Virus record (IMG/VR): IMGVR_UViG_3300025936_000023
Location: 5,622-69,621 of that record
Direction: 5' to 3' (one strand)
From: a virus
Taxonomy: Duplodnaviria > Caudoviricetes
Length of the DNA: 64,000 nt
Part shown: positions 11,557 through 40,980 of the stretch, piece after piece
Position numbering within the stretch: the stretch's first letter is position 1
How the letters are laid out: every line of letters starts with the position of its first letter
Made by a program: the position numbers and the translations under genes
Notes under the pieces: model-generated
Seen by the model: the letters and a program-made list of their open reading frames with translations, nothing else
Database searches by the model: none
Told to the model about the DNA's origin: nothing

Positions 11557-12600
11557 ATGGCCGCCAACATCGCCACCTTCAAGCCCAAGGGCGGGTTTGG
11601 CCGCCGCGACCACTTCGGCCTCAAGGCCCTCGCCGGCCTGGCTGCCGCCAACGACGACAACCCCGTCATGACTCTCCGCTCCTACTCGCCGCTTCCCCGC
11701 GACGCGCAGGAGATCATCGACAACGAGATCCTGAAGGTCGGCCGTGACGAACTCGTCATTGCCGCGACCCTTCTCGACTCGGTGAGCAAGCCGCTGCCCA
11801 ACTGGCTCTCGCTCACGACCGTCACGTCGCAGCGCGCGGGGGAGGCTGGCCGCGCTCAGGTCGGCATGGTGCCGAACACTCGCGGCGAGCGCCAGATCCC
11901 CGACCTGGCCGAGTACAGCGTCCCGGTGTTCTCGATCTGGGACGACTACGAGTTCGACATCAAGACGATCAACACCGCCCAGCGTGTCGGCTATGCCCTC
12001 GACACGACTTCCGCCGAGCAGGCCACCCGCAACGTCAACGAGAAGATCGAAGACGTCATGCTCAACGGCCTCGTCGACGCCAACGGCGATCCCATCCTTG
12101 TCTACGGCCTCCCCGTCTATGGCTTGCTCAACGCCCCCAACGCCTCGACGTACCCCTTCGAGACCAACACGAAGTGGGACGACGCGGCCAAGACGGGCAG
12201 CGACATCCTCACCGACGTCATCGGCATGCTGAAGCTCGGCAAGGCGGCCCACCAGACCGGCCCGTGGACGTTCTTCATCCCCACTTCCTACGGTTTCGCA
12301 CTGTCGAAGCAGTTCACGGCCGGCTACCCTGCGACCATCCTCAGCATGCTGCTGCAGATCCCCAACGTCGCCGGCTTCGTGGTCGCTGATTCCCTCCCCG
12401 ACGACACCGTCGTGATGTTCAACAAGAAGACGAACAGCATGGACGTGCTGGTCGGCATGCTGCCCACCTCGTTCTCGTGGGCGACCAACCCGCAGATGCC
12501 GTTCAGCGGTGTCAGCAGCATGGTCGCGGCGGTCGTCATCCCGCGGCCGAAGTACAGCTACAACAACGAGACCGGCATCGTCGTGGGCACGCCGACGTAG
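11557..12600 (+). CDS. Major capsid protein (HK97 fold, Linocin M18/encapsulin-like)
   Basis: 347 aa; SVPVFSIWDDYEFDIK, EDVMLNG...VYGLLNAPN; position and very high codon bias. Confidence 0.85.
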   Translation: MAANIATFKPKGGFGRRDHFGLKALAGLAAANDDNPVMTLRSYSPLPRDAQEIIDNEILKVGRDELVIAATLLDSVSKPLPNWLSLTTVTSQRAGEAGRAQVGMVPNTRGERQIPDLAEYSVPVFSIWDDYEFDIKTINTAQRVGYALDTTSAEQATRNVNEKIEDVMLNGLVDANGDPILVYGLPVYGLLNAPNASTYPFETNTKWDDAAKTGSDILTDVIGMLKLGKAAHQTGPWTFFIPTSYGFALSKQFTAGYPATILSMLLQIPNVAGFVVADSLPDDTVVMFNKKTNSMDVLVGMLPTSFSWATNPQMPFSGVSSMVAAVVIPRPKYSYNNETGIVVGTPT

Positions 12601-13536: not shown

Positions 13537-13983
13537 TCACTGTCCATAGACTTGAAGTCGAAGACGGTCAATCGCCATTAGGGCTTCTTCCCTAGTCGCG
13601 TAGCAGCCAAGAGGTATTTCAACCTTTCTGATGTGCAGACGAGCCCTCCATCTGCCGTTCGGCAACAGCGATGCACCCTTTCCGGTGCCTCGTCGTTTGC
13701 GAGCCATGTCGCTGCGATTGTCTTGGTCTGTGCCGGCCTTCAGATGTTCTGGTTCGCAGCACGCCGGTTTATCGCAGCTATGAAGGACCTGCGGTCTGTC
13801 TTTTGTGATGGTGCGGCCAGAAAGCTCGTAAGCGATCCGATGAGCATAGAATGTCTTACCTCCGACCACAAAAGATCCGTAGCCTGCTGTAGTTCTCGCG
13901 CCCATGAACAACAGGCAGCCATCGTCGTCGCGCTCCAGTCTTGAACGGAACCTTTCGATGTCTTGCTGGCTTAGTGGTATCAT
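13537..13983 (-). CDS. Free-standing HNH homing endonuclease with AP2-like tail
   Basis: GCLLFMG...GYGSF...AHRIAY...VLHSCDKPACCEPEHL...DN; antisense; visibly more AT-rich. Confidence 0.9.
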   Translation of the reverse strand: MIPLSQQDIERFRSRLERDDDGCLLFMGARTTAGYGSFVVGGKTFYAHRIAYELSGRTITKDRPQVLHSCDKPACCEPEHLKAGTDQDNRSDMARKRRGTGKGASLLPNGRWRARLHIRKVEIPLGCYATREEALMAIDRLRLQVYGQ

Positions 13984-13990
13984 GAACACG

Positions 13991-14019
13991 ACCCTACAGC
14001 CAAGGAAGCAGATTGTCAA
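13991..14019 (-). promoter_or_regulatory. Promoter of the HNH gene (leaderless geometry)
   Basis: TTGACA (14019-14014), 17 nt, TAGGGT (13996-13991), 7 nt, ATG. Confidence 0.65.
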
Positions 14020-14375
14020 TCAGTTACGATTCCACGTTGCCTTCTGACCGCGACTGGTGTCGGCTGCTGTGCCGCGACACGGACGTCGCCAAGGCCATGT
14101 TCGACGACGACGAGATCGACGCTGTCCTCGCCACGCGCGCGGCCGGCCCGGCTCGCAAGTACCTCACCGCCGCCGATCTCCTCGACATACTCCATGTCGC
14201 CTACATGACCAAGGGCAAGGGTGTCGCCAGCAAGAAGGTCAGCCGTCTCACCGTCGTCTACGGCACTGGCAGCGGCATCAACATCGACATCGCGCTGCAA
14301 ACCGCAATCTCCAAGTACCGTAAGCGCGGCGCCCAACTGCTCCAGCCGGCTCCGTTCGCTATTCGCGCCCTATAG
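14013..14375 (+). CDS. Head-tail connector/adaptor
   Basis: DRDWCRLLCRDTD...FDDDEIDAVL pattern typical of gp15-like adaptors; TTG start. Confidence 0.7.
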   Translation: MSISYDSTLPSDRDWCRLLCRDTDVAKAMFDDDEIDAVLATRAAGPARKYLTAADLLDILHVAYMTKGKGVASKKVSRLTVVYGTGSGINIDIALQTAISKYRKRGAQLLQPAPFAIRAL

Positions 14376-14388
14376 GAGGCCTTCGCCC

Positions 14389-14790
14389 ATGAAGCGGATC
14401 CTGCTCTCTGTCGTTGCCGGCTTGGCGCTCTCGCTGCTGGCGTTGTCGTCGCCGGCCGCCGCTGCCAGCAACATCCGCACGACCAAGCTGGCCGCCGGCA
14501 CTAGCGACTCAGCCATCATCGCCGCCAATCCTGCCGGCACCGCCACGCTCCTCGAATTCTGCGGCTTCTCGGCACGCGAGACCGGCGGGGCTTCCACCGC
14601 CACCATCGACGTCTACAACGGTAGCAGCGCGAGCGGTCAGCTCATATTCACTTTCTCCCTTGTCGGCGCCGAGAGCCGTAGCGAAGGTCCGTGGGAAGAT
14701 GCCGCGTGTATCCCTGCCCCCAACGGCATCTTCATCGACCGCGGCGGCGCGGGCACTACACTGCTCCTCGTTTATAGTCGGCAGCGGTGA
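14389..14790 (+). CDS. Signal-peptide-bearing small beta-rich protein
   Basis: AGGAGG RBS; MKRILLSVVAGLALSLLALSSPAAA|AS. Confidence 0.75.
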   Translation: MKRILLSVVAGLALSLLALSSPAAAASNIRTTKLAAGTSDSAIIAANPAGTATLLEFCGFSARETGGASTATIDVYNGSSASGQLIFTFSLVGAESRSEGPWEDAACIPAPNGIFIDRGGAGTTLLLVYSRQR

Positions 14791-14815
14791 GCGGTAGCGA
14801 TAAAGGACAGCAACC

Positions 14816-16636
14816 ATGAGAAGGCTGAATACTCTTCTTGTCCTCTTGTCGCTGCTTGTCGTGCCGGCGACTGTCCAGGGCGGCAGCTCGGGCGGCACAA
14901 CTACCGGCGGTGGCGGCGCCGGTACAGTCACCAGCGTCAACGCCAGCGGACCTTCTGTCTTCACTTGGTCTGGTGGGCCGATCACCGACACTGGCACGCT
15001 CACCGCCGCGCTCAACACGCAGGCGGCCAACCTCTGCCTTGCCGGCCCTGCGACAGGCTCGGCCGCGGTGCCGACGTTTCGTGCGTTGGTCGACGCCGAC
15101 GTCCCCAACACGATCACTATCGACCTTGCCACTGCCTGCACAGCCCTCGCTGCCAACCCCGCCAACTGCTCGGCCGGCCAGATTCCGCTGGGCATCACCG
15201 CGAGCGGCACCGCCGAGGGCTGCTACACCCCGACGAGCACTACCGTGGGACTCTCCAATGTCACCAACGACGCGCAGACCAGGGCGGCCATTGTCCCCAA
15301 CACCATACCCTCGGCGGGGCAGATTCAGATCGGCAACGCCGGCGGCACGGCCTACGCCCCGCAGACCTTGAGCGGCGACTGCACGGTTACGAGTGCTGGC
15401 GTGATCACTTGCTTCGGTTCGTCGCCCGCCACGGTTGCCAAGGGCGGCACCGGCGCCACGACCTTCACGAATCACGGCGTCCTCTTCGGCCAGGGCGGCA
15501 GCGCAATTGCCGCGAGTGCGGCCGGCACCGCGGGCTACCCGCTCACCAGCGGCGGCGCCTCAGCCGATCCGAGCTTCGCCCAGCTCGTCCCCGCCGCACT
15601 AGACTTCTCGGCCGACAACACGACGGCCAACGCGACCACCGGACACCACGGGCTGCTGCCGAAGCTAAGTGGCAACGCGAGCGAATTCCTTAATGGTGTC
15701 GGTGCATTCGCGACCCCCGGAGCGCCAGCGCCGCCGGGTTCCACAACGCAGGTCATCTTCAACGACGCCGGAGTGTTTGGCGCCGACTCTCAGCTCACGT
15801 TCAACAAGACCTCCGGCCTCACCACCATCACTTCCGGCGGCCACGCGGGCGCGGCAGCCTTTAAGGTTCTTCCCGATAGCGGAACGTCGTACACCCAAAT
15901 TAACGACAACGGGACAATGGTTGTCAACGCCGATGTTGCCGGTACTCCAATTCTCGATCTCCAATACAGCGGCTCGTCGAAGTACCAATTCGGCTACAAC
16001 CTCGGCACCATTACCAACCCGCTCAGTCTTGGCGGCGGTGCTCTCTATGTGTCGAACGGCGGCGTTATTGGCGTTGGCTCGGCTATCCCGCTCACCTTTT
16101 CTAGCACCTCAAGCGGGAATGGGGCGGCGGACGGGTCCGTGTCTCGCATCGCTGCCGGTGTTGCCGGCTTCGGCACCGGAGCTGCCGGCTCACGCGCGGG
16201 CTGGATGCAGTGGGCCGGCGAGTGCTTCGTCGCTTCCGATCAGACGAACGCCACCACGACGATGGCCTCGTCGACCTGCTCAATCACCGTCACCAGCGGC
16301 CGCAAATACAGCTTCGTTTGCGAGCTGTTTATGTCGGATTCGGTTGCGGCCGATGGCGCCAAGATCGACTTCAACGGCGGGACCGCGACGGCTACCAACT
16401 TCCGCGCTCAGGTGACGGCGTTCGACACGGCGCTGAATCTATCGTCGCAGGTGACGGCGCTCGCTACTGCGTCGTCAGCCACTACATTTACTGGCGCCGG
16501 GGCCTTCGAGGTCCACGGGGCGTTCGAGCCTTCGGCGAACGGAACCTTCATTCCGGAGTTCGCACAAGTCGGGCATACTACCGGGACACTGACGCTGAAC
16601 CGCGGCAGCAATTGCCGTATGTTCGATATGCCGTAG
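14816..16636 (+). CDS. Signal-peptide-bearing mosaic fibre-like protein (606 aa)
   Basis: MRRLNTLLVLLSLLVVPATVQG|G; fibre-type modules GTVTSV, PTFRAL, GLSNVTND, VAKGGTGAT, HGLLPKLSG; Thr/Ser/Gly-rich; paired Cys. Confidence 0.8.
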   Translation: MRRLNTLLVLLSLLVVPATVQGGSSGGTTTGGGGAGTVTSVNASGPSVFTWSGGPITDTGTLTAALNTQAANLCLAGPATGSAAVPTFRALVDADVPNTITIDLATACTALAANPANCSAGQIPLGITASGTAEGCYTPTSTTVGLSNVTNDAQTRAAIVPNTIPSAGQIQIGNAGGTAYAPQTLSGDCTVTSAGVITCFGSSPATVAKGGTGATTFTNHGVLFGQGGSAIAASAAGTAGYPLTSGGASADPSFAQLVPAALDFSADNTTANATTGHHGLLPKLSGNASEFLNGVGAFATPGAPAPPGSTTQVIFNDAGVFGADSQLTFNKTSGLTTITSGGHAGAAAFKVLPDSGTSYTQINDNGTMVVNADVAGTPILDLQYSGSSKYQFGYNLGTITNPLSLGGGALYVSNGGVIGVGSAIPLTFSSTSSGNGAADGSVSRIAAGVAGFGTGAAGSRAGWMQWAGECFVASDQTNATTTMASSTCSITVTSGRKYSFVCELFMSDSVAADGAKIDFNGGTATATNFRAQVTAFDTALNLSSQVTALATASSATTFTGAGAFEVHGAFEPSANGTFIPEFAQVGHTTGTLTLNRGSNCRMFDMP

Positions 16637-16661
16637 GCCGCCACCTCAAGGAGATCTCTAA

Positions 16662-16976
16662 ATGCGCCGGATCATCGCCCGCTGCCTCTTTGCCACCGCC
16701 CTGCTACTCGCTGCCGCCGCTGGCTGGGCAACTCGCTCGGTTAGCTACGTGCTGCAGAACTGCTCGCGCGCCGACATTCGCGCGATGACCATCCGCGTCG
16801 ATCCGACAAGCGGCGACCCTGTCGAGGACGTGCAGTACCAGCTCCGCGACGCGGGCGGCACCGTCGTGAAGACGGGCGGCATCGTGCTCACGCTGACGAC
16901 GACGCAGAAGAACACGCTGCTCTCGCACATCGACACCGTCGTGCGCCCAGCGGTGGACACGGCCGAGGGCCTGTAG
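16662..16976 (+). CDS. Signal-peptide-bearing small protein
   Basis: AAGGAG RBS; MRRIIARCLFATALLLAAAAGWA|T. Confidence 0.75.
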   Translation: MRRIIARCLFATALLLAAAAGWATRSVSYVLQNCSRADIRAMTIRVDPTSGDPVEDVQYQLRDAGGTVVKTGGIVLTLTTTQKNTLLSHIDTVVRPAVDTAEGL

Positions 16977-16985
16977 GCGGCGACT

Positions 16986-17744
16986 ATGCGCGCTCGCTTA
17001 ACGGTCGCGCTGGCGCTCTTGCTCGCGTCGTGGTGGGCGTGCGCGGCGCATGCTGAGGTCCGCTTCGTGCCGCTGGCGAATGCCTCTGGCGGCAACAGGC
17101 TCTACGTGGCCGACACCGAAGCGGAGTGTCCGACGACCGGCGCGGCCAACGGCGACGTCTGCATCGCGCTCGACACCGGCAAGATCATCAAGCGTACAGC
17201 CGGCAGCAACATCGCGGCTGTCGCGTTCAGTAGCCTGACCGGCTCGCTGGCTTGCGCGCAGTTGCCGCCCTTCACCGGCAACGTGACGACGTCGGCCGGC
17301 TCGTGCTCGACCACTATCGGCAACGGCGTTGTCACCAACGCGATGCTGGCTGCGCTGTCGTACACCAAGGTCGTATTCGTCGCCACCTGCGCGGGCACAG
17401 CTACAGCCAGCAGCACGCTCTACCTGTTCCCTATCGGCCAGCTCTCCGCGCTCACCTGTACGATCACGACGCCGACGGCTGGTATCCCTATGCCGACGGC
17501 GGGGACACTCAAGAACCTGACCGTTAAGGTCGGCACCGGAGGTAAGGCTGGCGACGCGGTGACGGTCCTCAAGGGCGGGTCGGCGACTGGGATGCCGACA
17601 TGCGTGTATGGCACGGGCACAACGTGCAGCGATTTGTTGACGGCTGGCGCAGTCGTCGCTGGCGACCTCATCACCGTGAAGCTCACGACGGCCGCGAGCG
17701 ACACTACAGCCAACGTCCAGGTTACGTTCGAGCTGTGGAACTGA
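16986..17744 (+). CDS. Signal-peptide-bearing fibre-like protein (252 aa)
   Basis: MRARLTVALALLLASWWACAAHA|E; LPPFTGNVTTSAGS..TIGNGVVTNAMLA fibre repeat; paired Cys. Confidence 0.78.
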   Translation: MRARLTVALALLLASWWACAAHAEVRFVPLANASGGNRLYVADTEAECPTTGAANGDVCIALDTGKIIKRTAGSNIAAVAFSSLTGSLACAQLPPFTGNVTTSAGSCSTTIGNGVVTNAMLAALSYTKVVFVATCAGTATASSTLYLFPIGQLSALTCTITTPTAGIPMPTAGTLKNLTVKVGTGGKAGDAVTVLKGGSATGMPTCVYGTGTTCSDLLTAGAVVAGDLITVKLTTAASDTTANVQVTFELWN

Positions 17745-18103
17745 TGAGCATCGTCGACGACATCGCCGACCTTCTCGACGCCGATCTCTACGCACAGTTC
17801 GGCGCCCTCGACTACACCGGCTCATTCGTCCCCTCCGGTGCCCTTCTCGGCCCACTCCCGTGTCGTATCGAGGGCGAGCAGCGCCTGGTCCGCGACCCCA
17901 CCGGCCAGGAAGTCACGACGAGCGTGCAGGTCATAGTCGGCGGCTACTTCGACCTCACGACCGACCACCATCGGTACTTCTTGCCGTCGCAGTGGTCGCC
18001 TAACGGGAGCGAGGGAGCGGGTGAAGGGCTGCGAGCGCTCTATGTCGACAACGTGAATGACGAAGCCGTCGGGCCGCTTTATCAGGAGCTGAGTTTTCCG
18101 TGA
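17744..18103 (+). CDS. Head closure/stopper protein
   Basis: PCRIEGEQRLVRDPTGQEVTTSVQV motif; TGATG coupling. Confidence 0.7.
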   Translation: MSIVDDIADLLDADLYAQFGALDYTGSFVPSGALLGPLPCRIEGEQRLVRDPTGQEVTTSVQVIVGGYFDLTTDHHRYFLPSQWSPNGSEGAGEGLRALYVDNVNDEAVGPLYQELSFP

Positions 18104-18146
18104 CTAGTCAATCATTCACACATCAGCCACTGAGGGAGAGCGCTCT

Positions 18147-19298
18147 ATGTCGTCGCCTCCATTCCGCATCCCCGTCTCGCAGCCCAAGATCGGCAACCTA
18201 GAACTCGGCCTGGTTGCCGACTGTCTGCGCCGCAACCAGCTCAGCCAAGGGCCAATGGTCGCTCGCTTCGAGCAGGAGTTTGCGGCCTACGTTGGCGCCC
18301 GCTACGCCGTCGCGACCAGCAGCGGCACGACCGCGCTTCATCTAGCCCTCGCCGCTCTGGGCATCGGCCCCGGCGACGAGGTGCTGGTGCCGGACCTGAC
18401 CTTCATCGCCACCGCGAACGCCGTCGTCTACTGCGGTGCGACGCCGGTCCTCGTCGACGCTGACCCGGCGACATGGTGCATGGGGCCGTCGCAGATCGCC
18501 GCCAAGCTAAGCTATCGAAGCCGCGCGATCATCCCTGTCCACCTCTACGGCGTTCAGTGTGATTACAGCACCTCGCGCGGACTGTTTGTCGTCGAGGACG
18601 CCTGTGAAGGACTTGGTGGCCGCTACATCACGAGCGGTCGCGCTCTCGGCACGGTCGGCGATTGCGGCGTGTTCAGCTTCTACGCCAACAAGGTAATCGG
18701 TGTCGGCGAAGGCGGCATGGTCGTAACCGACAACGAGCAGTTCGCCGAGCGCTTGAGGCTCTATCGCGGCCAGGGCTGGCACCCAAGCGACGCCCGCTAC
18801 TACCACTCCGTCGTCGGCTTCAACTACCGCATGACCGAGCTGCAAGCGGCAGTCGGGGTCGGCCAGTTGCAGCGGCTGCTGTCCATGTTGGCTGCTCGTC
18901 GTGCGATCTTCGACCGCTACGCGCACCACCTCGACGGCTACTTGCCGTCGCCGCCGTGCAGCACCGACGTCGGTAGCGCGCCGTGGCAGTACACGACGAT
19001 GCTGCCGCCGGGTGTCAGTCGCGATGGCTTAGCCGACGCTCTGGCCGCTGCTGGCATCGAGACTAGGCCGGTGTTCGTGCCGCTTCACCGGCTGCCGATG
19101 TATCGAGCATCCTACGTCACCGAAGTGGGCGGCGATGGGCCGTCGCTTGCCGACGTCGACTTCCCTGCCGCTGCCGCTATCGCCGACGCCGGTATCTCGT
19201 TGCCGACCTTTGCCGACATGACGATGGCGCAGGTAGACGAGGTGGCCCAGCGTGTAGTAGACTACGTGGCGAGACAGACGACTGGAGATCGGCCATGA
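18147..19298 (+). CDS. DegT/DnrJ/EryC1/StrS PLP-dependent nucleotide-sugar aminotransferase (perosamine synthase-like)
   Basis: ATSSGTTALHLAL, VVEDAC, FSFYANK with PLP Lys, GEGGMVVT, GFNYRMTELQAAVG. Confidence 0.93.
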   Translation: MSSPPFRIPVSQPKIGNLELGLVADCLRRNQLSQGPMVARFEQEFAAYVGARYAVATSSGTTALHLALAALGIGPGDEVLVPDLTFIATANAVVYCGATPVLVDADPATWCMGPSQIAAKLSYRSRAIIPVHLYGVQCDYSTSRGLFVVEDACEGLGGRYITSGRALGTVGDCGVFSFYANKVIGVGEGGMVVTDNEQFAERLRLYRGQGWHPSDARYYHSVVGFNYRMTELQAAVGVGQLQRLLSMLAARRAIFDRYAHHLDGYLPSPPCSTDVGSAPWQYTTMLPPGVSRDGLADALAAAGIETRPVFVPLHRLPMYRASYVTEVGGDGPSLADVDFPAAAAIADAGISLPTFADMTMAQVDEVAQRVVDYVARQTTGDRP

Positions 19299-19492
19299 AG
19301 CATCTACGATTCGGCTTCGGTTCTTGGCTGGGAACAGCGACGACTAGCGTTCTAACCGCAGCGGCGTTCGCGTCGATGGGCGACATCGCTTGGTCGCGTG
19401 TCTATATCGCTGCCTGTTTGTGGTTGATCGTGCTGACCGTCGTCGGGATGATCTACTTCGCCGCCGCTGTCGTGAAGGAGAGTCGGCGGTGA
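19295..19492 (+). CDS. Small two-TM membrane protein
   Basis: Hydrophobic 65 aa, coupled on both sides. Confidence 0.65.
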
Positions 19493-20094
19493 GTGCAACA
19501 GACTTTGCCTACGGTCGGCTAGAGCTAGGACGGCGTCAGCTCATCGCGCACTCTAACAACGCCGGCAGCCAGCCGACAATCTACGAGCCAGTCAGCATCT
19601 TGCGACCCGACCATCTCTGGATTCACCCGTCTGCCCGCATCGACCCCTTCACTCGCATCGAGTCCGGCGAGGGCACCTACATTGGCCCGCTGGTTCATGT
19701 GGCGGCGCACTGCCACTTGGGCGTGGGTGGCGGCATCCTCATCATGGAAGAAGGCTCTGCCGCCAGCAGCCACGTCTGTATTGTCACCGGCAGCAACGTG
19801 CCCGGCCCTGGTCGCGGGTGCTCGGCAGTCGACCCGGCGGCTGTTGTCGAGCGCAGCTTCGTGCATGTCAAGCGAAACGCGATTCTGTTCGTCGGCGCGA
19901 TAGTGCTGCCGGGCGTGACGGTGGGCGAGGAGGCGGTGGTGGCGGCTGGAGCAGTAGTGACGAAGGACGTGCCCGACGGTGCGACGGTTGCCGGCGTGCC
20001 TGCGCGAGTCGTGAAGACGGCCGACAGCTCTAGCGTGTGGCCGTCACTGCAAGAGCCGTTCGACATGGGCGATGGCGCAGGAGCGATAAGGTAG
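19489..20094 (+). CDS. Hexapeptide-repeat (left-handed beta-helix) sugar acyltransferase
   Basis: [27 protein letters not shown]...GVPARV; RIDPF and HVAAH recall QdtC-type N-acetyltransferases. Confidence 0.88.
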
Positions 20095-20831
20095 TGCGTG
20101 TGTGCGTAGCGTCTGCCCACCGCAACTCTGCCGGCCGCCAAATCAGTCGCTGGATCAGCCAGATCATCGCCCTCCGCGACGAGCTGCGCAACCACTACTA
20201 CTGCGGCGTGCGCGCCGTAGCCGTCGAGGGCGACTCAACCGACACCACTCGCGCTCAGCTCACCACCGAAGCCGAGCAACGACTAGCTCCTCGCGATATC
20301 GAGTTCGAGCTGGCGACGTGCAACCACGGCGGGCCGGTGTACGGGTCGACAGAGCAACCAGAGCGGATGGCTGCGCTGTCCAAGGTCGGCAACGCGGTGC
20401 TGGATGCGGTGCGGGCAACCGATGACGTGCTCGTCTATGTCGAGAGCGACTTGGTGTGGGACGCCGAGACGATTAGACGGCTGATTGATCGAGTTCTCGG
20501 CGCTGCTGTTCACCGTGTCGAGTCGACGTGGGATCTCGACGCTGTCGACGACTGCGACGTGTGGGTGCCAGTCGTCATGGCCGGCGACACCCATTACGAT
20601 TGCTGGGCGTATAGGACGCTTGACGGCTCTCGCATCTTCCACCCCTTCCCGTTCACGGCGCCTACCGAACTCAGCAGTGCCGGTAGCTGCCTCGTGATGC
20701 CGGCGGCGGTCGCCCGAGACAAGCGGGCGCGGATGGAGACCGGAGCGCTGGTCGAGTGGTGTGAGAAGGCGCGAGCAGCTGGCTACAGGATCGCAGTCGA
20801 CCCGGCGCTTATCGTGAGGCACCCGGCGTGA
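20094..20831 (+). CDS. GT-A fold glycosyltransferase-like protein (GT2/Anp1-like)
   Basis: VAVEGDSTDTT, VLVYVESDL (DxD-like), ELSSAGSCLVM, C-terminal VDP...HP. Confidence 0.7.
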   Translation: MRVCVASAHRNSAGRQISRWISQIIALRDELRNHYYCGVRAVAVEGDSTDTTRAQLTTEAEQRLAPRDIEFELATCNHGGPVYGSTEQPERMAALSKVGNAVLDAVRATDDVLVYVESDLVWDAETIRRLIDRVLGAAVHRVESTWDLDAVDDCDVWVPVVMAGDTHYDCWAYRTLDGSRIFHPFPFTAPTELSSAGSCLVMPAAVARDKRARMETGALVEWCEKARAAGYRIAVDPALIVRHPA

Positions 20832-20926
20832 GCTGCTTGGGCGCTGTTATCGCCTTGGCTACCGTTGTCGCGTTTGCCTGGTGGACTGGCGTGCAGATGT
20901 TCGGCGATCCGCGAGACGACAAATGA
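20828..20926 (+). CDS. Small membrane peptide (32 aa), not in the ORF track
   Basis: MSCLGAVIALATVVAFAWWTGVQMFGDPRDDK; GTGA and ATGA coupling to both neighbours. Confidence 0.5.
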   Translation: MSCLGAVIALATVVAFAWWTGVQMFGDPRDDK

Positions 20927-21780
20927 AGGTCTTCGTCAAGCCGACGGGCATGTACTCGCGCGCGATGGTGCGTATCGCCGACGCCCTCGCTCGCCACGCT
21001 CCACCGTCCGTCAGCATCACGGCCGACCGCGACGCAGCCGACCTAGTCGTCCTCTACGTGATCGGGCCGGACGCACTCCAGGCAGGCCGCGATCTTGTTG
21101 CTGCCGGTAAGAAATATGCAGCTGTCCAATGTTGCTGGAAGACGACCGGCGTCGCCGACGCCGACTGGATGCCGTTCTGGCGAGACGCAGATCTCGTGTG
21201 GTCGTACTACCAATTGCCTGGCGACGGAACGTTCAATTTTTACTACGCGCCACTAGGCGTTGACACCATCTTTGCGAGTGCTTATCGTCTGAGCAACGTT
21301 AAGCAGCCGACCATCATCACCACCGGCTTCGTGTCGTCGCCGGCTGGCGAGGCTATCGAGGAAGTGTGGCTGGCAGCTCGCCGCTGTAACTTCCGCACCA
21401 TCCACATCGGACCGCCGAACGTCGAGGGCACGCTGCTCCACGCCGACGAGCACATCCAGCCCTCTGACGCTAAGCTGGCGGCGGTCTATGCTGAGGCTCG
21501 CTGGGTGGCGTCGTTGCGGCACACCGAAGGCTTTGAGTGCCCAGCGGCCGAGGCCGTCGTGGCTGGCACTCGCCCGTTACTGTTCGATCAACCAACACTT
21601 CTCTACTGGTATCGCGACGTCGCCGAATACGTGCCGGAGTGCAGCGGCGACGTGTTGGTTGACCTGCTGACGATAAAGCTGTCTGGGCTCGACCCGGTGA
21701 GCGGCCACGAACGCGATTGGCTGCTACGACGTTTCGACTGGGCGACGATATGCCGCGGATTCTGGGAGCGCGTCCTTTAA
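20923..21780 (+). CDS. GT-B fold (GT4-like) glycosyltransferase
   Basis: APLGVD, SLRHTEGFECPAAEAVVAG (EX7E), FDWATICRGFWE. Confidence 0.8.
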   Translation: MKVFVKPTGMYSRAMVRIADALARHAPPSVSITADRDAADLVVLYVIGPDALQAGRDLVAAGKKYAAVQCCWKTTGVADADWMPFWRDADLVWSYYQLPGDGTFNFYYAPLGVDTIFASAYRLSNVKQPTIITTGFVSSPAGEAIEEVWLAARRCNFRTIHIGPPNVEGTLLHADEHIQPSDAKLAAVYAEARWVASLRHTEGFECPAAEAVVAGTRPLLFDQPTLLYWYRDVAEYVPECSGDVLVDLLTIKLSGLDPVSGHERDWLLRRFDWATICRGFWERVL

Positions 21781-21796
21781 CGGAGGCTCGTCAGAC

Positions 21797-22588
21797 TTGA
21801 AACTAGGAGAGAGAATTTTCTCTGGTCTGTTGTTGAAGGAGCACGCGCTCTACGTACTCGAAGATCCGACTACCGACGAGATTAGGTATGTCGGCTATAC
21901 GTGCGACGTTCGGCGTCGGTTCTCCGAGCACAGAAAGCGCCGCCATTCGTACACGAGCAGCTGGATTCAATCGCTACACAATAAGGGATTGCAGCCTAGA
22001 CTGAGAGTCTTGTGCTACGTTCAGGACGCATTCGAGGCGAAGCGTCTTGAAGTCGAACTAATAGCCAAGTACAGAAGGCGAGGAGTCCGTCTCACCAACG
22101 GGACTGAAGGTGGTGACGGAGTCGTATCAACTCCAGAGACTAGGGCCAAGCAGATTGCAGCGGCGACTGGTGTAGTTTTTACCGCCGAGAGAAAAGCTAA
22201 TATCTCTGCTGCGCTAAAGAAGCTGCCGGTCACGCAAGAACGGCTCGATGTTCTGAACAGGGCTTGCCGGTCTCTCAGTAGAGAGCAGATTCTGCTCCGT
22301 AATCAAGCTATCGCGGCTGCCAAGTTAGGGCAGCCTCTTAGTGAGTTTCATTGCCGACGTATATCAGAGACGGCGAAGGCAAGATGGTCTAAGGCAGAGG
22401 AGCAGAGACTGAAAGCGTCTTGGACTCCTGAAAGGGGAGCGAAGATATCAGCGGCTAAAAAGGGTAAACCATTATCCGAAGAGAACAAAGCCGCTATTCG
22501 TGCAGCAGCTGCCAGACCAGAAGTCAAAGCCAAGCAGTCTGCCGCACGTAAACTATGGTGGGCACGGAGAAAGGCGTTCGAGTCTTGA
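21797..22588 (+). CDS. GIY-YIG homing endonuclease with NUMOD3-like repeats
   Basis: LYVLEDP...RYVGYT..RR...E..I...LTNGTEGGDG; ISAAKKGKPLSEE repeats; AT-richer. Confidence 0.9.
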   Translation: MKLGERIFSGLLLKEHALYVLEDPTTDEIRYVGYTCDVRRRFSEHRKRRHSYTSSWIQSLHNKGLQPRLRVLCYVQDAFEAKRLEVELIAKYRRRGVRLTNGTEGGDGVVSTPETRAKQIAAATGVVFTAERKANISAALKKLPVTQERLDVLNRACRSLSREQILLRNQAIAAAKLGQPLSEFHCRRISETAKARWSKAEEQRLKASWTPERGAKISAAKKGKPLSEENKAAIRAAAARPEVKAKQSAARKLWWARRKAFES

Positions 22589-23874
22589 GAGTTCTTTGGA
22601 ACGGCGACTCGCCGACGATAAGCACCGGCTTCTCGCGTTGCACAGTCGCGGCCTGCGACGCCCTTCACGCTGCCGGTCACGAAGTCCACATCTTGGGTAT
22701 CAACGAAACTGGCGACCATCGCACCTACCACTCGCCAATCTACCCGTGCATTCAGCCTTTCGACCAAGGCAGAGACGCGTTCGGTGTCGGTCGTATGCCT
22801 GTTCTAGTCGACCGTCTCCGTCCTGACGTCATCTGCTGTTTAAACGATCCGTGGAATCTGCCGGCGTACACCAAGACGCTCGATGCCTTCTTCAAGGACG
22901 AGCCTTCGGCGATTCCGCCGATATGCGCATGGTTGGCAGTCGACGGCAAGAACCAGCACGGTTGGCTGCTTAATCGCCTGTCGCACATCATGGTGTGGAC
23001 TAAGTTCGCCGAAGACGAGCTGCGAAGTGGAGGCTACAAGGGCACCTGCTCCATCGTTCCACTTGGCGTCGACCACTCGGTTTTCTATCCGCGCGATAGA
23101 GCTGAAGCCCGCCGCATAGCGTTCCAGACCTTGCCAGAGCCGTTGCCAGATGACGCATTTATCGTCGGTGTTGTCGGGAGATTGCAGCACAGGAAAAGGA
23201 TCGACCTTTCGCTCCGCGCGTTTGCTGAGTGGATCGAGCGCACAGGCATCGACAACTCGTTCATCTACATCCACGCGGCGCCGACTGGAGATACTGGGTG
23301 CCATATCCGTTCGCTCACTCGCTACTACGGTCTTGACGGGCGCGTCGTTATCTCTGAGCCGCACATCGGCCGTGGCGTCGAAGAGACCGTGCTCCCGTGG
23401 ATCTACGCTTCATTCGATACGATGCTTACGACCACCCAGGGCGAGGGCTGGGGGCTTTGTCAGCACGAGTGCATGGCGATGGGCGTGCCTGTCGTCGTCC
23501 CCGATTGGTCTGCGCTTGGTGTCGACGGGTGGACCGGCAATGGCGTGCTGAGGGTGCCGTGCAACTCGACGGCGTTGACAGCGCCGATGAACGGTCTGGC
23601 CTACACGATTGGCGGGGTTGCAGACTGTTCTGCGGTCGCTGACGCACTGGATCTTCTCTACCGAGATCGGTCGGCGAGAGAGCACTATGCGGCTGCCGGC
23701 CTCGCCAAAGCCGCCGAGTTCAGCTGGCAACGCACCGGAGCCATGGTCGTAAGCGAGTTAGAACGAGTCGTTTACGAGGCGGAAACCAAGCGTAGACAGC
23801 AGTCGGCGATTGCAGTAGACTCAGGCGACTCGCCGGCCACCGAGCCGGCTCACACACCAGTCACCAGCCAGTAG
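22585..23874 (+). CDS. GT-B fold (GT4-like) glycosyltransferase
   Basis: MRVLWNGDSPTISTGF, VPLGVD, GVVGRLQHRKRIDL, TTQGEGWGLCQHECMAMGVP (EX7E). Confidence 0.9.
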   Translation: MRVLWNGDSPTISTGFSRCTVAACDALHAAGHEVHILGINETGDHRTYHSPIYPCIQPFDQGRDAFGVGRMPVLVDRLRPDVICCLNDPWNLPAYTKTLDAFFKDEPSAIPPICAWLAVDGKNQHGWLLNRLSHIMVWTKFAEDELRSGGYKGTCSIVPLGVDHSVFYPRDRAEARRIAFQTLPEPLPDDAFIVGVVGRLQHRKRIDLSLRAFAEWIERTGIDNSFIYIHAAPTGDTGCHIRSLTRYYGLDGRVVISEPHIGRGVEETVLPWIYASFDTMLTTTQGEGWGLCQHECMAMGVPVVVPDWSALGVDGWTGNGVLRVPCNSTALTAPMNGLAYTIGGVADCSAVADALDLLYRDRSAREHYAAAGLAKAAEFSWQRTGAMVVSELERVVYEAETKRRQQSAIAVDSGDSPATEPAHTPVTSQ

Positions 23875-23996
23875 TTTAAACAGCAAGTCGGCTCGTCAGC
23901 CAGTCACCGGCCACAGCCATAGCGGCATATCGCCGCCGCGGTCGCCGTCCGAGGTCTACGCAGCTGGCCAACGCCGCCGTCTTAGGCTGGGAGCAA

Positions 23997-24428
23997 GTGA
24001 GCCGCCGCTTAATCGCGGTCGGCCCTGCTATGGCGAGCGCCGCCGACGACTTCATGGTGCGCGAGGCGCAGTCGATCCTCGACAAGTCGTTGCAGCTCGT
24101 GCCGCATGAGAGCGGCGATCTGGCGCGGTCGGGCGAGGTTAGTCGCACTGGCGGCCGTCTCGGTGTCGGTGTTGCGCGCCAGATCCTTCAACGCACTGCC
24201 GGCGGCCAGTTCACGACCGGCAGCATCCAAGTCAGCTACGGCCGCGGGCTCGCCGAAGATTATTCGGTCCCCGTGCATGAAACGCCGAGCAAGCACGATC
24301 CGCCGTCGTGGCGCGGCAAGCGCGTGCAGTTCAACTCAGGTGGCCCTCAATTTCTGGCACGACCTTTCCGCGAGACCGTCGGCACGCTGTGGCAGCGGCT
24401 CGCAGCGCATCTGCGGAGCAAGCTGTAG
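23997..24428 (+). CDS. Neck protein (HK97 gp10-like)
   Basis: AQSILDKSLQLVPHESGDLARSG...VHE...GGPQFLARPF; true start may be upstream. Confidence 0.75.
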   Translation: MSRRLIAVGPAMASAADDFMVREAQSILDKSLQLVPHESGDLARSGEVSRTGGRLGVGVARQILQRTAGGQFTTGSIQVSYGRGLAEDYSVPVHETPSKHDPPSWRGKRVQFNSGGPQFLARPFRETVGTLWQRLAAHLRSKL

Positions 24429-24835
24429 TGGCACGCTACCTGGAAGTCTTGGCGGTTAATCGTCCGTCGCCCATCGGTGTCGACCAGAACAACCGCACGA
24501 TGTTCTCGGCGACATACCAGGCGATGGGGGTGTCGATTGCGAAGTTTGAAGAGGAGTTGGCGCGCATCCTCTACGACGCCGGCCTCATGACACTCGGCAC
24601 CGACGGCTTCGTCGGCCCCGCCTCCACCATCCCGACGACAGGCGGCGGCCCGTTCATCACCCTCATCGACACCGGCGGCACCTCGCCGCTGGAAACCCAC
24701 AACGGCGACAAGTACGAGCGCATGTCGATCCAAATCATCGTGCGAGCGCTGAGCTATCAGGTCGCACGTACTCGCGCGCTGGCGATCTGGCGAGAGCTGG
24801 ACGGCAAGCGCGAGATAACGGTAACAGCAGCTTAA
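24428..24835 (+). CDS. Tail terminator / tail completion protein
   Basis: DTGGTSP...YERMSIQIIVRALSY..AR..A..I...LDG; position before tail tube. Confidence 0.75.
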   Translation: MARYLEVLAVNRPSPIGVDQNNRTMFSATYQAMGVSIAKFEEELARILYDAGLMTLGTDGFVGPASTIPTTGGGPFITLIDTGGTSPLETHNGDKYERMSIQIIVRALSYQVARTRALAIWRELDGKREITVTAA

Positions 24836-38070: not shown

Positions 38071-38781
38071 GTGAAGGTCACGGCCGAGCAACTACGGTTC
38101 ATCATGCCGACGCTCCACGAGGAGCGAGCCGCGTTGTGGGCGCCCTACCTCAGCGACGCCATGACGGAGTTCTTCATCTCCACTCCGCCGCGCGCCGCAG
38201 CCTTCCTCGCCCAAGACGCTCACGAGAGTCGCGAACTCTCCGCGCTCGTCGAGTCGATGAACTACAGTGCCGACCGCATGATCGCCGTGTGGCCGTCGCG
38301 GTTCGGCCACCAAAGCGGAGCGACAGCGGCACAGCGGGCGGCCGGTCGCACGCTCGCGGCCAAGCTCGCCCACCAACCCGCCGCGCTTGCCAACTACGTC
38401 TACGGTGCGCGCGGTGGCAACCGGGGCGAGGCGAGCGGCGACGGGTGGTTGTATATCGCGCGAGGGCCGCTGGGCACGACCGGCCGCGCGAACTACGGAG
38501 CGGCCGGCCTCGCGCTAGGACTCCCCCTGCTCGACCATCCTGAACTGTTGGAGCATCCGCAGCACGGTTCACGCGCCGCCGCCTACTTCTGGCAGTCCAA
38601 CGGACTCAACAAGGTCGTCGATGCTGGCGAGTCGGTGGCCGACCGCGACGGGGCGCTCGAAGCCTTCACCGCCTGCAGCAAGGCCGTCAACCTTGGCTCG
38701 CCGACCGCTAAGGGTACACCGCTCGGGATGGCGGAACGGCTGGCGTACTGGCAGCGAGCACGAAAAGCCTTGAGCGCCTAG
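38071..38781 (+). CDS. Endolysin, glycoside hydrolase family 19
   Basis: RAAAFLAQDAHES, VESMNYS, GDGWLY.ARG...TGRANY, YFWQSNGLN; Gln of the usual IQxTG is Gly here. Confidence 0.88.
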   Translation: MKVTAEQLRFIMPTLHEERAALWAPYLSDAMTEFFISTPPRAAAFLAQDAHESRELSALVESMNYSADRMIAVWPSRFGHQSGATAAQRAAGRTLAAKLAHQPAALANYVYGARGGNRGEASGDGWLYIARGPLGTTGRANYGAAGLALGLPLLDHPELLEHPQHGSRAAAYFWQSNGLNKVVDAGESVADRDGALEAFTACSKAVNLGSPTAKGTPLGMAERLAYWQRARKALSA

Positions 38782-38988: not shown

Positions 38989-39414
38989 GTGTCGACTCAG
39001 TCGACGGCACGGCGAGCTTCAACAGCGGTGGTCGCGGTGATCGCCGCGGTCGCCCTGGGTGCCTGCGCCGCCTCGCCCAAGCCGCACACGCTGCCCGCTC
39101 CCGACCCCGCCCTCGCTGCCTCCTACTCAGCCGAGATCACCGCCGCCGACACCGTGCGCGAGGTCGTCCTCACCGACGTCGGCACCCGCCACCGCGCCGG
39201 CCTCCTCACCGACGCCAGTTTCTCGGCTATCCGCAATGCTGGTCTAAGGCTAGAGGCCGCCGTCCGCGTCGCCAGCAGCGAACTCAAGGTCTACCTGGCG
39301 AGCGGCGTGGCCGGCGATGGCCTAGAGCGAGCGCTGTCTGAGCTAAGAGCTGCCCGCACCGACTTCGAGCTGACACGGGACAAGGTGAACGCGGAGGATC
39401 CCCTTCATGGCTAA
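38989..39414 (+). CDS. Lipoprotein (possible spanin or exclusion protein)
   Basis: GTG after AAGGA; MSTQSTARRASTAVVAVIAAVALGA|C lipobox; an upstream ATG at 38812 is an alternative start. Confidence 0.7.
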   Translation: MSTQSTARRASTAVVAVIAAVALGACAASPKPHTLPAPDPALAASYSAEITAADTVREVVLTDVGTRHRAGLLTDASFSAIRNAGLRLEAAVRVASSELKVYLASGVAGDGLERALSELRAARTDFELTRDKVNAEDPLHG

Positions 39415-39619: not shown

Positions 39620-39891
39620 TTGGGCGGCTCGTCGCTGCGGAAGTCGTTATCGCCGTCGTAGGTCGCGAAGATCCCGGTGCCGACAAGATCGTCGAGTTCC
39701 TTCCTGGCCTTGTCGAAGTCGGCTGCCAGCCTAACGAAACAGCCCGCCACCAGGTCGGCTACCTCGGCGCCGACGAACTCGATGAAGGCATGGAGCGCTT
39801 GCTGTTCGCGGTAAAGCTCTAGTGACTCGGCCAGTGCCGCCGTGAACGCCCTTCGGTACTCGCTCTCGCCGCTCCTGCGATCACAGTCCAT
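39616..39891 (-). CDS. Hypothetical protein, last gene of the - arm
   Basis: Acidic helical 91 aa. Confidence 0.6.
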   Translation of the reverse strand: MDCDRRSGESEYRRAFTAALAESLELYREQQALHAFIEFVGAEVADLVAGCFVRLAADFDKARKELDDLVGTGIFATYDGDNDFRSDEPPN

Positions 39892-40975: not shown

Positions 40976-40980
40976 GCCGT

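Follow-up and report, generated by a model that had tools for sequence, protein, structure and literature searches.

Positions 14389 to 23874 in the genome of an uncultured soil phage are probably, though not securely, to be read as two independent accessory modules lodged in one plastic slot of the late structural operon. The IMG/VR record of this phage (IMGVR_UViG_3300025936_000023) comprises 69.6 kb with 64% GC and is ~78% complete; the window analyzed here is a stretch of 64,000 nucleotides of it, to which all positions refer. Within the slot, four signal-peptide ORFs (module B, 14389-17744) and a sugar cassette (module A, 18147-23874) separate the head-tail joining genes. All mapped genes from 14013 to 24835 are co-oriented on the + strand (Table 1), and in a consensus scan promoter- and terminator-like sites were no more common than in shuffled sequence.

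The split of the joining genes, which a preliminary description of this DNA had noticed, is real, since a 14013-like gene directly abuts a 17744-like gene in two related contigs (L030 and L033) and the entire head-tail set is compact in the cultured Brevundimonas phage StAshley. We call the 14013 product a putative adaptor from its position and conserved synteny: its homologs come after MCP in L030, L033, L038/39, L080, L081, L085, and L099, and it gave no match in Pfam, PHROG, or PDB sequences, nor with hhalign against DnaT_2-type adaptors. Homologs of the 17744 product, whose gene start overlaps the SP4 stop (ATGA), are present in L030, L033, and L081. The neck family (alignment A5) carries the motif VPVD.G.LR.S, with a PF04883 match in 3 of 11 homologs, and the neck gene corresponds to the StAshley gene four positions after MCP. 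Of the connector, stopper, and neck genes proposed earlier, the second and third gained family matches (PHROG 3881 and PF04883), the first stands by position and synteny only, and the neck start has been moved, probably lying at 24030 rather than 23997.

Table 1. Features mapped in and around the slot between the head-tail joining genes
Position	Strand	Feature	Basis or remarks
13537-14019	-	HNH_3 homing endonuclease	PF13392, E 3e-5; GC 54%
14013-14375	+	120-aa lineage-specific protein, head-tail adaptor position	Position and conserved synteny
14389-14790	+	SP1, predicted exported 133-aa protein	Mature part CUB-like jelly roll, 2 Cys
14816-16636	+	SP2, predicted exported 606-aa fiber, 10 Cys	Shaft motifs, tip fold
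16199-17753	+	Recently exchanged tract: SP2 tip, SP3, SP4	85-87% nt identity to L022
16662-16976	+	SP3, predicted exported 104-aa protein	Signal peptide; 93% identity to L022 homolog
16986-17744	+	SP4, predicted exported 252-aa short fiber, TNF/C1q-like tip	8 Cys in mature part
17744-18103	+	119-aa head-tail connector, head-closure position	PHROG 3881, E 6e-5
18147-19298	+	PLP-dependent sugar aminotransferase, DegT family	PF01041, E 2e-105
19295-19492	+	65-aa ORF, two hydrophobic (membrane) helices	Hydrophobicity; missing from relatives' cassettes
19489-20094	+	Hexapeptide (left-handed beta-helix) sugar acetyltransferase	PF00132, E 1e-10
20094-20831	+	CAP59/GT69-like glycosyltransferase (GT)	PF11735, E 1e-8
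20923-21780	+	285-aa GT-B-type glycosyltransferase	PHROG 4356, E 4e-4; conserved EGFE-x-PAAEA motif
21797-22588	+	GIY-YIG homing endonuclease, between two GT genes	PF01541, PHROG 314
22555-23874	+	GT4-family glycosyltransferase, lineage-conserved anchor gene of cassette	PF13692, PF13439
24030-24428	+	HK97 gp10-like neck/tail-completion protein	Family matches PF04883
24428-24835	+	Tail terminator	PF12691, E 4e-10

The sugar cassette and its place beside the neck and tail genes

Module A consists of soluble cytoplasmic enzymes in a conserved gene order. The amino-sugar genes and three GTs had been recognized correctly before, as had the lack of signal peptides on the GTs, none of which has a hydrophobic N-terminus. 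The DegT enzyme is closest to the LegC and PseC types, with NCBIfam scores of 284 bits for LegC and 259 bits for PseC that fall short of the equivalog cut-offs, and the acetyltransferase scored 53.8 bits against the NeuD/PglB/VioB family, below its cut-off of 160.8. In L030 the two genes abut without the 65-aa ORF between them. The CAP59-like GT has homologs at 40-47% identity in 13 related loci.

Full-length homologs of the GT4 enzyme (36-50% identity) were found in 73 IMG/VR viral contigs, mostly directly upstream of neck, tail-terminator, and tail-tube genes: the terminator lies downstream in 54 of these loci and the tail-tube gene in 39, while MCP was detected in 22. A homolog of the 285-aa GT immediately precedes GT4 in 27 of the 73, and in L030 the gene order is MCP, adaptor-like, connector-like, and a five-gene cassette. 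These loci show that the cassette has been kept at one position across a large uncultured siphovirus lineage. Among 150 ORFs neighboring it in relatives are methyltransferases, GT2, DegT, and cupin enzymes, which indicates that the glycan chemistry is variable.

Taken alone, the cassette is best read as a virion glycosylation system, and it probably glycosylates the virion of the present phage. From an NDP-4-keto-6-deoxy-hexose supplied by the host, the DegT aminotransferase and the acetyltransferase would make an acetamido-dideoxy sugar, and the three GTs would assemble a short glycan or attach it while the late genes are expressed. As in mycobacteriophages, whose virion glycosylation was reportedly studied by Freeman et al. 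in 2023, the likeliest acceptor would be a protein of the virion, either of the capsid or of the tail tube.

Three reports describe such glycosylation in Che8, Corndog, and Myrna (PMC11600133, PMC12363180, PMC12619734). As in those phages, soluble phage-encoded GTs are found here, often with methyltransferases (in relatives) and presumably co-expressed with the virion genes, and many lineage members have a capsid C-terminal Ser or Thr (MCP of 8 out of 19, including the present phage). Unlike in mycobacteriophages, the putative glycosylation genes here include amino-sugar tailoring enzymes of their own, and the cassette keeps a fixed place within the head-tail joining module; its three GTs have no detectable sequence similarity to mycobacteriophage GTs, and the host is probably Gram-negative. 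The closest cultured-phage homolog of GT4 (27% identity) is that of cyanosiphovirus S-CBS4, which likewise lies among structural genes and has an HNH endonuclease gene as its neighbor. The GT/galactosyltransferase/methyltransferase block of S-CBS4 lies between the portal and protease genes; unlike the cassette here, it precedes the capsid genes and has different partner enzymes.

It is possible, though we consider it unlikely, that the cassette instead alters the envelope polysaccharide of the host (LPS, EPS, or capsule) late, with the lectin fibers of module B binding the surface, and that the two, together or separately, block superinfection and keep progeny from being lost to debris. In favor of this, the sugar enzymes belong to the O-antigen/capsule type, the tips of the exported proteins are lectin-like, and the flippase-type family Polysacc_synt_C was matched by 2 of the 150 neighboring ORFs, a hint that the surface glycan of some relatives may be lipid-linked. 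Exported phage exclusion proteins are also known, namely, the T5 lipoprotein Llp and T4 Spackle (PMC9586334, PMC7677548). However, the 69.6-kb record yielded neither an initiating phosphoglycosyl transferase nor a protein of the Wzy/O-antigen-ligase type, and no SDR dehydratase either; as the record is incomplete, such enzymes may sit in the missing ~12 kb. Moreover, a late-operon location leaves little time for replacing a surface glycan, and the synteny with neck and tail-tube genes would go unexplained.

Predicted exported fibers and an exchanged tract

The four proteins of module B, also taken to be exported in the preliminary description, all start with ATG and have a charged n-region, a 14- to 16-residue hydrophobic core, and a small-x-small site. 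In SP1, these elements are MKR, a 16-residue core, and an AAA cleavage motif, and its ESM Atlas model has a TM of 0.5-0.6 to CUB domains and viral ~120-aa clusters. An ORF at 14414-14797 was rejected as a gene, being an off-frame shadow of the real gene 14389-14790. SP2 is laid out as a signal peptide, a poly-Gly linker, a shaft with motifs common to phage tail fibers (239 homologs), and a TNF-like lectin tip, whose predicted structure (pLDDT ~90) matches PLTL lectin (Z 11.8), Pgp3 (Z 10.7), the short fiber of cyanophage A-1(L) (Z 9.1), and Bdellovibrio Bd2734 (Z 9.0). The C-terminal 130 aa of SP4 are common to the C-termini of ordinary tail-fiber-like proteins, and its tip fold, predicted with a pLDDT of only 60-84, resembles the tail fiber of Agrobacterium phage 7-7-1 (Z 8.9) and XepA (Z 8.2). 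SP3 had no family or ESM Atlas match above noise. The Cys counts of mature SP1, SP2, and SP4 are all even (2, 10, and 8), while the core virion proteins (portal, MCP, tail tube, TMP, and two tail-tip proteins) have 1 Cys in ~4,170 residues. Among 120 SP2 homologs, the 42 with a signal peptide average 10.8 Cys, versus 3.8 in the others.

Module B recurs in one other, otherwise unrelated phage (L022/L105). Nucleotide similarity to L022 is limited to 16199-16632 and 16662-17753, and the tract of SP2 tip, SP3, and SP4 has evidently passed recently between the two phages. In L022, an HNH gene breaks the tract exactly at the SP2/SP3 junction; the HNH protein encoded at 13537-14019 is 56% identical to its product over 41 aa. 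The GIY-YIG gene, overlooked in the preliminary description, has a GC content of 52% versus 64% for the phage and is missing from relatives, in which the 285-aa GT gene abuts GT4. Both endonucleases are selfish insertions.

Our best reading of module B is a horizontally mobile set of putatively Sec-exported, periplasm-matured lectin fibers. Like the mosaic adhesive trimer (MAT) fibers of Bdellovibrio bacteriovorus (PMC10769870), SP2 combines a signal peptide with a phage-fiber-like shaft and an exchangeable tip, the latter matching Bd2734. MATs are encoded by chromosomal genes of the predator, have a conserved ~130-aa N-terminal domain, and in many cases carry an S74 chaperone-protease, whereas SP2 belongs to a phage late operon and has a poly-Gly linker after the signal peptide, and no S74 domain was matched here. 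Module B also resembles host-range cassettes of a tail-fiber tip and accessory genes, both in its shaft motifs and TNF/C1q-like tips and in the co-transfer of a tip with downstream small genes between unrelated phages. It differs from these in that every member has a predicted Sec signal peptide, in its paired cysteines, and in its location, which is not downstream of the tape-measure gene but among the head-tail connector genes.

That the SP proteins are real head or neck fibers, which either mature in the periplasm and dock only after lysis or retain their N-terminus as part of the structure, appears distinctly unlikely. Their genes do lie within the head-tail module, and homologs occupy canonical fiber positions in unrelated phages, between MCP and the connectors in P0006 and within SU10-like tail modules in P0022 and P0097, a setting more in keeping with genuine virion components than with morons. 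The tail-fiber-like shafts and tips, the horizontal exchange typical of host-range cassettes, and the lack of another evident side fiber downstream of the tape-measure gene would agree with virion fibers as well. However, no virion-attachment domain was identified, tailed phages are to our knowledge assembled in the cytoplasm in all studied cases, and the L022/L105 block opens its own transcription unit beside small membrane proteins, outside any structural module.

Separate distribution of the two modules

No SP1 to SP4 homolog was detected at any of the 73 GT4 loci (E ≤ 1e-4), and in L022/L105 the 17 kb that follow the exported block contain no sugar cassette. The preliminary description had paired the two blocks as one system and had named their independent distribution among relatives as a ground for refutation. 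Since the synteny comparison finds them distributed independently, the one-system proposal fails in this respect and is not supported.

A system of that kind, in which the cytoplasmic GTs O-glycosylate the Thr/Ser-rich fibers before Sec export and the glycosylated, disulfide-bonded fibers coat the virion or the cell, would follow the model of serine-rich-repeat adhesins or AIDA-type autotransporters; we regard it as quite improbable. Bacteria offer a precedent, as cytoplasmic GT4-type enzymes glycosylate adhesins prior to export. Here, the blocks adjoin and are co-transcribed, and Gly, Ser, Thr, and Ala make up 48-53% of mature SP1, SP2, and SP4. In L040 and L067, clusters of signal-peptide ORFs non-homologous to SP1 to SP4 lie near the GT cassette, so a loose functional link of the modules is conceivable. 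Against an integrated system stands not only the occurrence of either block without the other, but also the low density of strong signal peptides upstream of GT4, 7 of 247 ORFs (2.8%), as counted in the 26 non-redundant relatives whose contigs extend 5 kb or more upstream. In addition, the cassette stays beside the neck and tail-tube genes with or without exported proteins.

It is very improbable that the hydrophobic N-termini are due to chance or mis-called starts and belong to four ordinary cytoplasmic structural or decoration proteins: although the signal peptides were called by a hand-made heuristic, which gives false positives at internal starts, together with sequence logic, all four proteins have the complete start and signal architecture, a clear Shine-Dalgarno sequence precedes three of them (that of SP4 is weaker), this architecture is kept in L022 despite divergence (in SP4, the cleavage motif AHA↓EV persists while the remainder of the signal peptide has diverged), and the even Cys counts and their association with signal peptides argue for export.

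Under the preferred reading of two independent modules, the SP proteins would acquire their fold and their disulfides in the periplasm and would bind a host surface glycan; the main alternative is that they attach to virions once the cell has lysed. Like Llp and Spackle, they may be envelope-targeted phage proteins that guard the infected cell or progeny at the receptor or entry step, although Llp and Spackle, single small proteins of the early or lysogenic phase, lack fiber architecture and have no sequence or fold relation to the SP proteins. The role we favor for the SP proteins is to mask the receptors of the infected cell and of its debris, which would provide superinfection exclusion and protect the progeny.

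A split head-tail joining module

The phage record is linear by IMG/VR class, 69,621 bp long with a GC content of 64%, and ~78% complete by CheckV; the window spans its bases 5622 to 69621. The same phage is also present on contigs of 81.5 to 81.8 kb from the JGI soil metagenome 3300005340 and one ENA assembly; our analysis covers the 69.6-kb record, and ~12 kb of the phage lies outside it. The late operon is of the siphovirus type, with a portal (PF06381), a DUF6260-type MCP, a tail terminator (PF12691), a short tail-tube protein, a chaperone, and a tape measure of 1,894 aa. The nearest cultured MCPs, those of Brevundimonas phages, share just 28% identity, and no nucleotide match to the whole interval was found by megablast against 50,697 phage records. 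Searches of genome contigs for host assignment returned no relatives of SP4, the last of four predicted exported proteins (SP1 to SP4), or of the profile of the cassette glycosyltransferase GT4.

The preliminary description held that exported proteins and a sugar operon separate the genes for head-tail joining, and the gene map together with genome comparison confirms this. The genes corresponding to those at 14013 and 17744 adjoin directly in relatives L030 and L033, and the head-tail gene set is compact in the cultured Brevundimonas phage StAshley; thus, the module of the window phage really is split. The adaptor role of the 14013 gene is assigned from its conserved position because homology to adaptor families was undetectable in PDB sequence and profile searches and by hhalign against the DnaT_2-type adaptors of relatives. 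The families of the 17744 and 24030 genes had no PDB matches. An ORF at 14414-14797 was rejected as an off-frame shadow of the SP1 gene. Internal promoters and terminators, which would be expected if the blocks were morons, were no more frequent in a consensus scan than in shuffled sequence.

Genes of the head-tail joining region and the two endonuclease genes (window coordinates)
Feature	Position	Strand	Basis
HNH_3 endonuclease	13537-14019	-	PF13392; GC 54%
120-aa gene, adaptor position	14013-14375	+	Conserved position
SP1	14389-14790	+	Signal-peptide N-terminus
SP2	14816-16636	+	Signal-peptide N-terminus
SP3	16662-16976	+	Signal-peptide N-terminus
SP4	16986-17744	+	Signal-peptide N-terminus
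119-aa putative connector	17744-18103	+	PHROG 3881, E 6e-5
GIY-YIG homing endonuclease	21797-22588	+	PF01541; GC 52%, GC3 52%
Putative neck	24030-24428	+	HK97-gp10-like PF04883, matched by 3 of 11 family members
Tail terminator	After neck	+	PF12691

The sugar cassette and its candidate acceptors

The sugar cassette runs in the order DegT-family aminotransferase, 65-aa ORF, hexapeptide acetyltransferase, CAP59-like GT, GT285 (a 285-aa GT-B-like protein with an EGFE-x-PAAEA motif), GIY-YIG endonuclease, and GT4, which places three GTs inside the late operon. For the aminotransferase (PF01041, E 2e-105), LegC and PseC were the best-scoring NCBIfam models, each short of its cut-off (284 bits against 420 and 259 against 423, respectively), and the acetyltransferase, with its hexapeptide repeats, seems nearest to the NeuD/PglD type, again below the curated cut-off (TIGR03570, 53.8 bits against 160.8). 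The 65-aa ORF (19295-19492), which has a good RBS and would encode two hydrophobic helices, is missing from the cassettes of relatives.

The cassette is a feature of the whole lineage. The GT4 profile recovered 73 IMG/VR loci with 36 to 50% identity over the full length, and tblastn with the window proteins showed GT4 lying directly before the terminator in 54 of the 73 and before the tail-tube gene in 39, and detected the MCP in 22. GT285 accompanies GT4 in 27 loci, DegT and the CAP59-like GT in 13 each, and the acetyltransferase in 10. The complete five-gene order recurs in nine of the loci (L030, L031, L064, L071, L080 to L083, and L098), and L085 keeps the order with GT285 undetected. A Pfam census of 150 ORFs neighboring GT4 on its upstream side found SAM methyltransferases, GT2, DegT, cupins, and GNATs, a repertoire suggesting that the glycan chemistry varies across relatives. 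In one relative, L040, the slot upstream of GT4 (L040:2431-6582) is occupied by a GH108-like muramidase, holin-like membrane proteins, and two Cys-rich proteins of the lipoprotein or signal-peptide kind, so the slot accepts lysis genes too. Cultured phages yielded no tblastn relatives of SP2, nor of GT285 or the CAP59-like GT (E ≤ 1e-3, 50,697 phage records); the nearest cultured homologues of GT4, at ~27% identity, are in cyanophage S-CBS4, where the gene also lies within a structural module, and Tetrasphaera phage TJE1.

A six-frame search of the ~78% complete record gave no PF01370 or PF02719 match indicative of an NDP-sugar 4,6-dehydratase/SDR, and the 69.6-kb record contains neither an initiating phosphoglycosyl transferase nor a Wzy/O-antigen-ligase-type protein. 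This gene content suggests that the cassette would draw on a host-made 4-keto-6-deoxy sugar nucleotide and that its soluble GTs would act on an acceptor in the cytoplasm. Among the relatives, two neighboring ORFs matched Polysacc_synt_C, and a simple hydropathy scan located no multi-pass flippase. A role of the GTs in DNA hypermodification was rejected: no hydroxymethylase-type Pfam match was found among the right-arm, terminase, portal, and tail ORFs, and the cassette is in a structural operon.

In mycobacteriophages, capsid and tail-tube proteins bear glycans (PMC11600133, PMC12363180) situated at the C-termini (PMC12619734), and by this analogy virion proteins are the likeliest acceptors. 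Of 19 cassette-lineage members, 8 have an MCP whose last residue is Ser or Thr (for example, GTPS, GTKS, and HMS); this count, uncorrected for relatedness, includes the window phage, whose MCP (11557-12600) ends in GTPT. This C-terminus may be a candidate glycosylation site, a weak lead. The cassette resembles the mycobacteriophage systems in having phage-encoded GTs that would be expressed with the virion genes, given their placement in the late operon here and in the 73 loci; however, the mycobacteriophage GTs (Che8 gp110, Corndog gp38) have no detectable sequence homology to those of the cassette, and tblastn of GT4 gave no mycobacteriophage match (E ≤ 1e-5, 50,697 phage records). A function of the cassette in virion glycosylation is plausible. 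To our knowledge, virion glycosylation has been shown in mycobacteriophages only, and the finding that ~70 contigs from uncultured phages of soil and freshwater keep a GT cassette beside their neck and tail-tube genes suggests that it is far more widespread. The cassette also supplies a defined set of enzymes with which virion glycosylation can be tested.

Distribution and probable transfer of the predicted exported block

The exported block and the sugar cassette had been proposed to form one new paired system, which is not borne out. No homologues of SP1 to SP4 were detected by tblastn in the 73 cassette loci, and the sole other carrier of the block, the 32-kb contig of an unrelated phage (L022/L105), has no sugar cassette with it. 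As judged from these comparisons, the two blocks are distributed independently among relatives, which is the genomic part of the outcome that the preliminary description itself named as counting against its proposal, and are not supported as one system; the chief result for the proposed pairing of fibers and glycosylation is therefore negative. The exported lectin-fiber cassette is the more unusual element of the two.

In L022/L105 the block begins with a 146-aa signal-peptide protein of another kind, followed by a 611-aa fiber, an HNH gene, and genes of 104 and 254 aa, whose products are 93% and 87% identical, respectively, to their window counterparts. There it stands at the head of a separate plus-strand transcription unit, with small membrane proteins and non-structural genes downstream. 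In 26 non-redundant relatives whose sequence upstream of GT4 extends for 5 kb or more, strong signal peptides were found in just 7 of 247 upstream ORFs, and the clusters of signal-peptide ORFs upstream of GT4 in L040 and L067 are non-homologous.

Only in 16199-16632 and 16662-17753 does the window share nucleotide identity of 85 to 87% with L022; the HNH gene of L022 (L022:3117-3686) is placed exactly where this tract breaks. The pattern looks like the movement of a tip-plus-accessory cassette between otherwise unrelated phages by homing-associated co-conversion. An HNH gene accompanies the block in both phages, and the two are related (56% identity over 41 aa). In the cassette, the GIY-YIG gene sits between GT285 and GT4, which abut in relatives, and the last 34 nt of the gene overlap the beginning of GT4. 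Judged by a free-standing nuclease domain, absence from the matching site of relatives, and foreign composition, both window genes qualify as homing endonuclease genes; their GC content is 54% (HNH_3) and 52% (GIY-YIG) against 64% for the phage.

In the lysis region of the window phage, 38071-38781 encodes a GH19-type endolysin and 38989-39414 a 141-aa lipoprotein whose lipobox reads LGAC. A lipoprotein homologue with 43% identity is present in the L022/L105 phage, a hint that the two phages share a host.

Predicted exported fiber-like proteins

SP1 to SP4 are predicted Sec/signal peptidase I substrates under criteria of a positive n-region, a hydrophobic core of 10 to 16 residues, and a small-x-small cleavage site: a heuristic search and inspection by eye found in each a charged n-region, a core of 14 to 16 hydrophobic residues, and a small-x-small site. 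All four genes start with ATG, and three have a clear Shine-Dalgarno sequence (that of SP4 is weaker). The cleavage motif is conserved in the L022 homologue. A conserved lipobox of signal peptidase II substrates, L-[AS]-[GA]-C at the close of the hydrophobic stretch, is missing from SP1 to SP4, and the one Cys of the SP4 signal peptide occupies another position in the L022 homologue.

The mature proteins carry even numbers of Cys residues (2 in SP1, 10 in SP2, and 8 in SP4). By contrast, the core virion genes between 7571 and 35661 (portal, MCP, tail tube, tape measure, and two tail-tip proteins) together encode a single Cys in ~4,170 residues, while the cytoplasmic enzymes are, like the exported proteins, Cys-rich (7 in DegT and 12 in GT4). 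Signal-peptide-like N-termini occur in 42 of 120 SP2 homologues, which average 10.8 Cys versus 3.8 in the remainder. This link, together with the even Cys numbers, is indirect evidence for export. A fifth candidate exported protein, encoded next to the lysis genes (39881-41065, minus strand), begins with a signal-peptide-like stretch (VNGVRRLVLAAVVALAVGAPALA) and has 8 further Cys residues and no Pfam match; to the eye, its C-terminal half resembles a lectin of the LamG or concanavalin type.

In SP2, the signal peptide is followed by a poly-Gly linker, shaft motifs, and a TNF-like tip. The shaft motifs are those of many phage tail fibers and recur in 21 viral loci and in 239 proteins. The tip fold is predicted with high confidence (pLDDT ~90), and the model matches the Photorhabdus lectin PLTL (Z 11.8), Pgp3 (Z 10.7), the short fiber of cyanophage A-1(L) (Z 9.1), and the tips of the Bdellovibrio MAT proteins Bd2734 (Z 9.0) and Bd2439 (Z 7.2). 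The C-terminal 130 residues of SP4, which recur at the C-termini of ordinary tail-fiber-like proteins, are modeled with moderate confidence (pLDDT just 60 to 84) as a TNF/C1q-like jelly roll, resembling the tail fiber of Agrobacterium phage 7-7-1 (Z 8.9). The model of mature SP1 is similar to a CUB-like jelly roll, which is frequent in viral proteins, and SP3 had no recognizable relatives in family or model searches.

The exported fibers are akin to phage tail fibers in shaft motifs and TNF/C1q-like tips, with the 7-7-1 and A-1(L) fibers as the best phage matches. Their closest analogues are the Bdellovibrio MAT fibers (PMC10769870), trimeric fibers that share with SP2 a signal peptide and an exchangeable tip. 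The likeness is confined to architecture and fold. The MAT fibers have a conserved beta-rich N-terminal domain of ~130 aa after the signal peptide, while in SP2 the cleavage site is followed by the poly-Gly linker and then the shaft motifs.

We favor a role in receptor masking, in which lectin fibers mature in the periplasm and bind a glycan of the host surface. The main alternative is that the exported fibers dock onto virions after lysis. In P0006, an unrelated HK97-type phage, signal-peptide homologues are encoded between capsid and connector genes, and others lie in SU10-like tail modules, positions that speak for virion parts; however, no tail or baseplate docking domain was recognized in SP2 or SP4, whose N-terminal halves are modeled at low confidence, and the L022 copy is located outside any structural module. 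The idea that the exported fibers are decoys paralogous to the tail-tip proteins of the phage was rejected, as the two show no similarity. Beyond receptor masking in the window phage, a general scheme may be imagined in which several unrelated lineages of tailed phages export fiber or lectin proteins via Sec, disulfides form in the periplasm, and the proteins attach to virions or cover host receptors only at or after lysis, in the window phage possibly in combination with a phage-made glycan. Tailed phages would then have another branch of morphogenesis, outside the cytoplasm; we regard this as a long shot.

Literature searches found no published account of tail fibers with signal peptides. 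In the textbook view, tailed phages assemble in the cytoplasm, and export signals and paired Cys residues on fiber-like proteins in structural operons clash with that view. As a compact, mobile unit with predicted tip folds, the exported cassette offers a practical test case.
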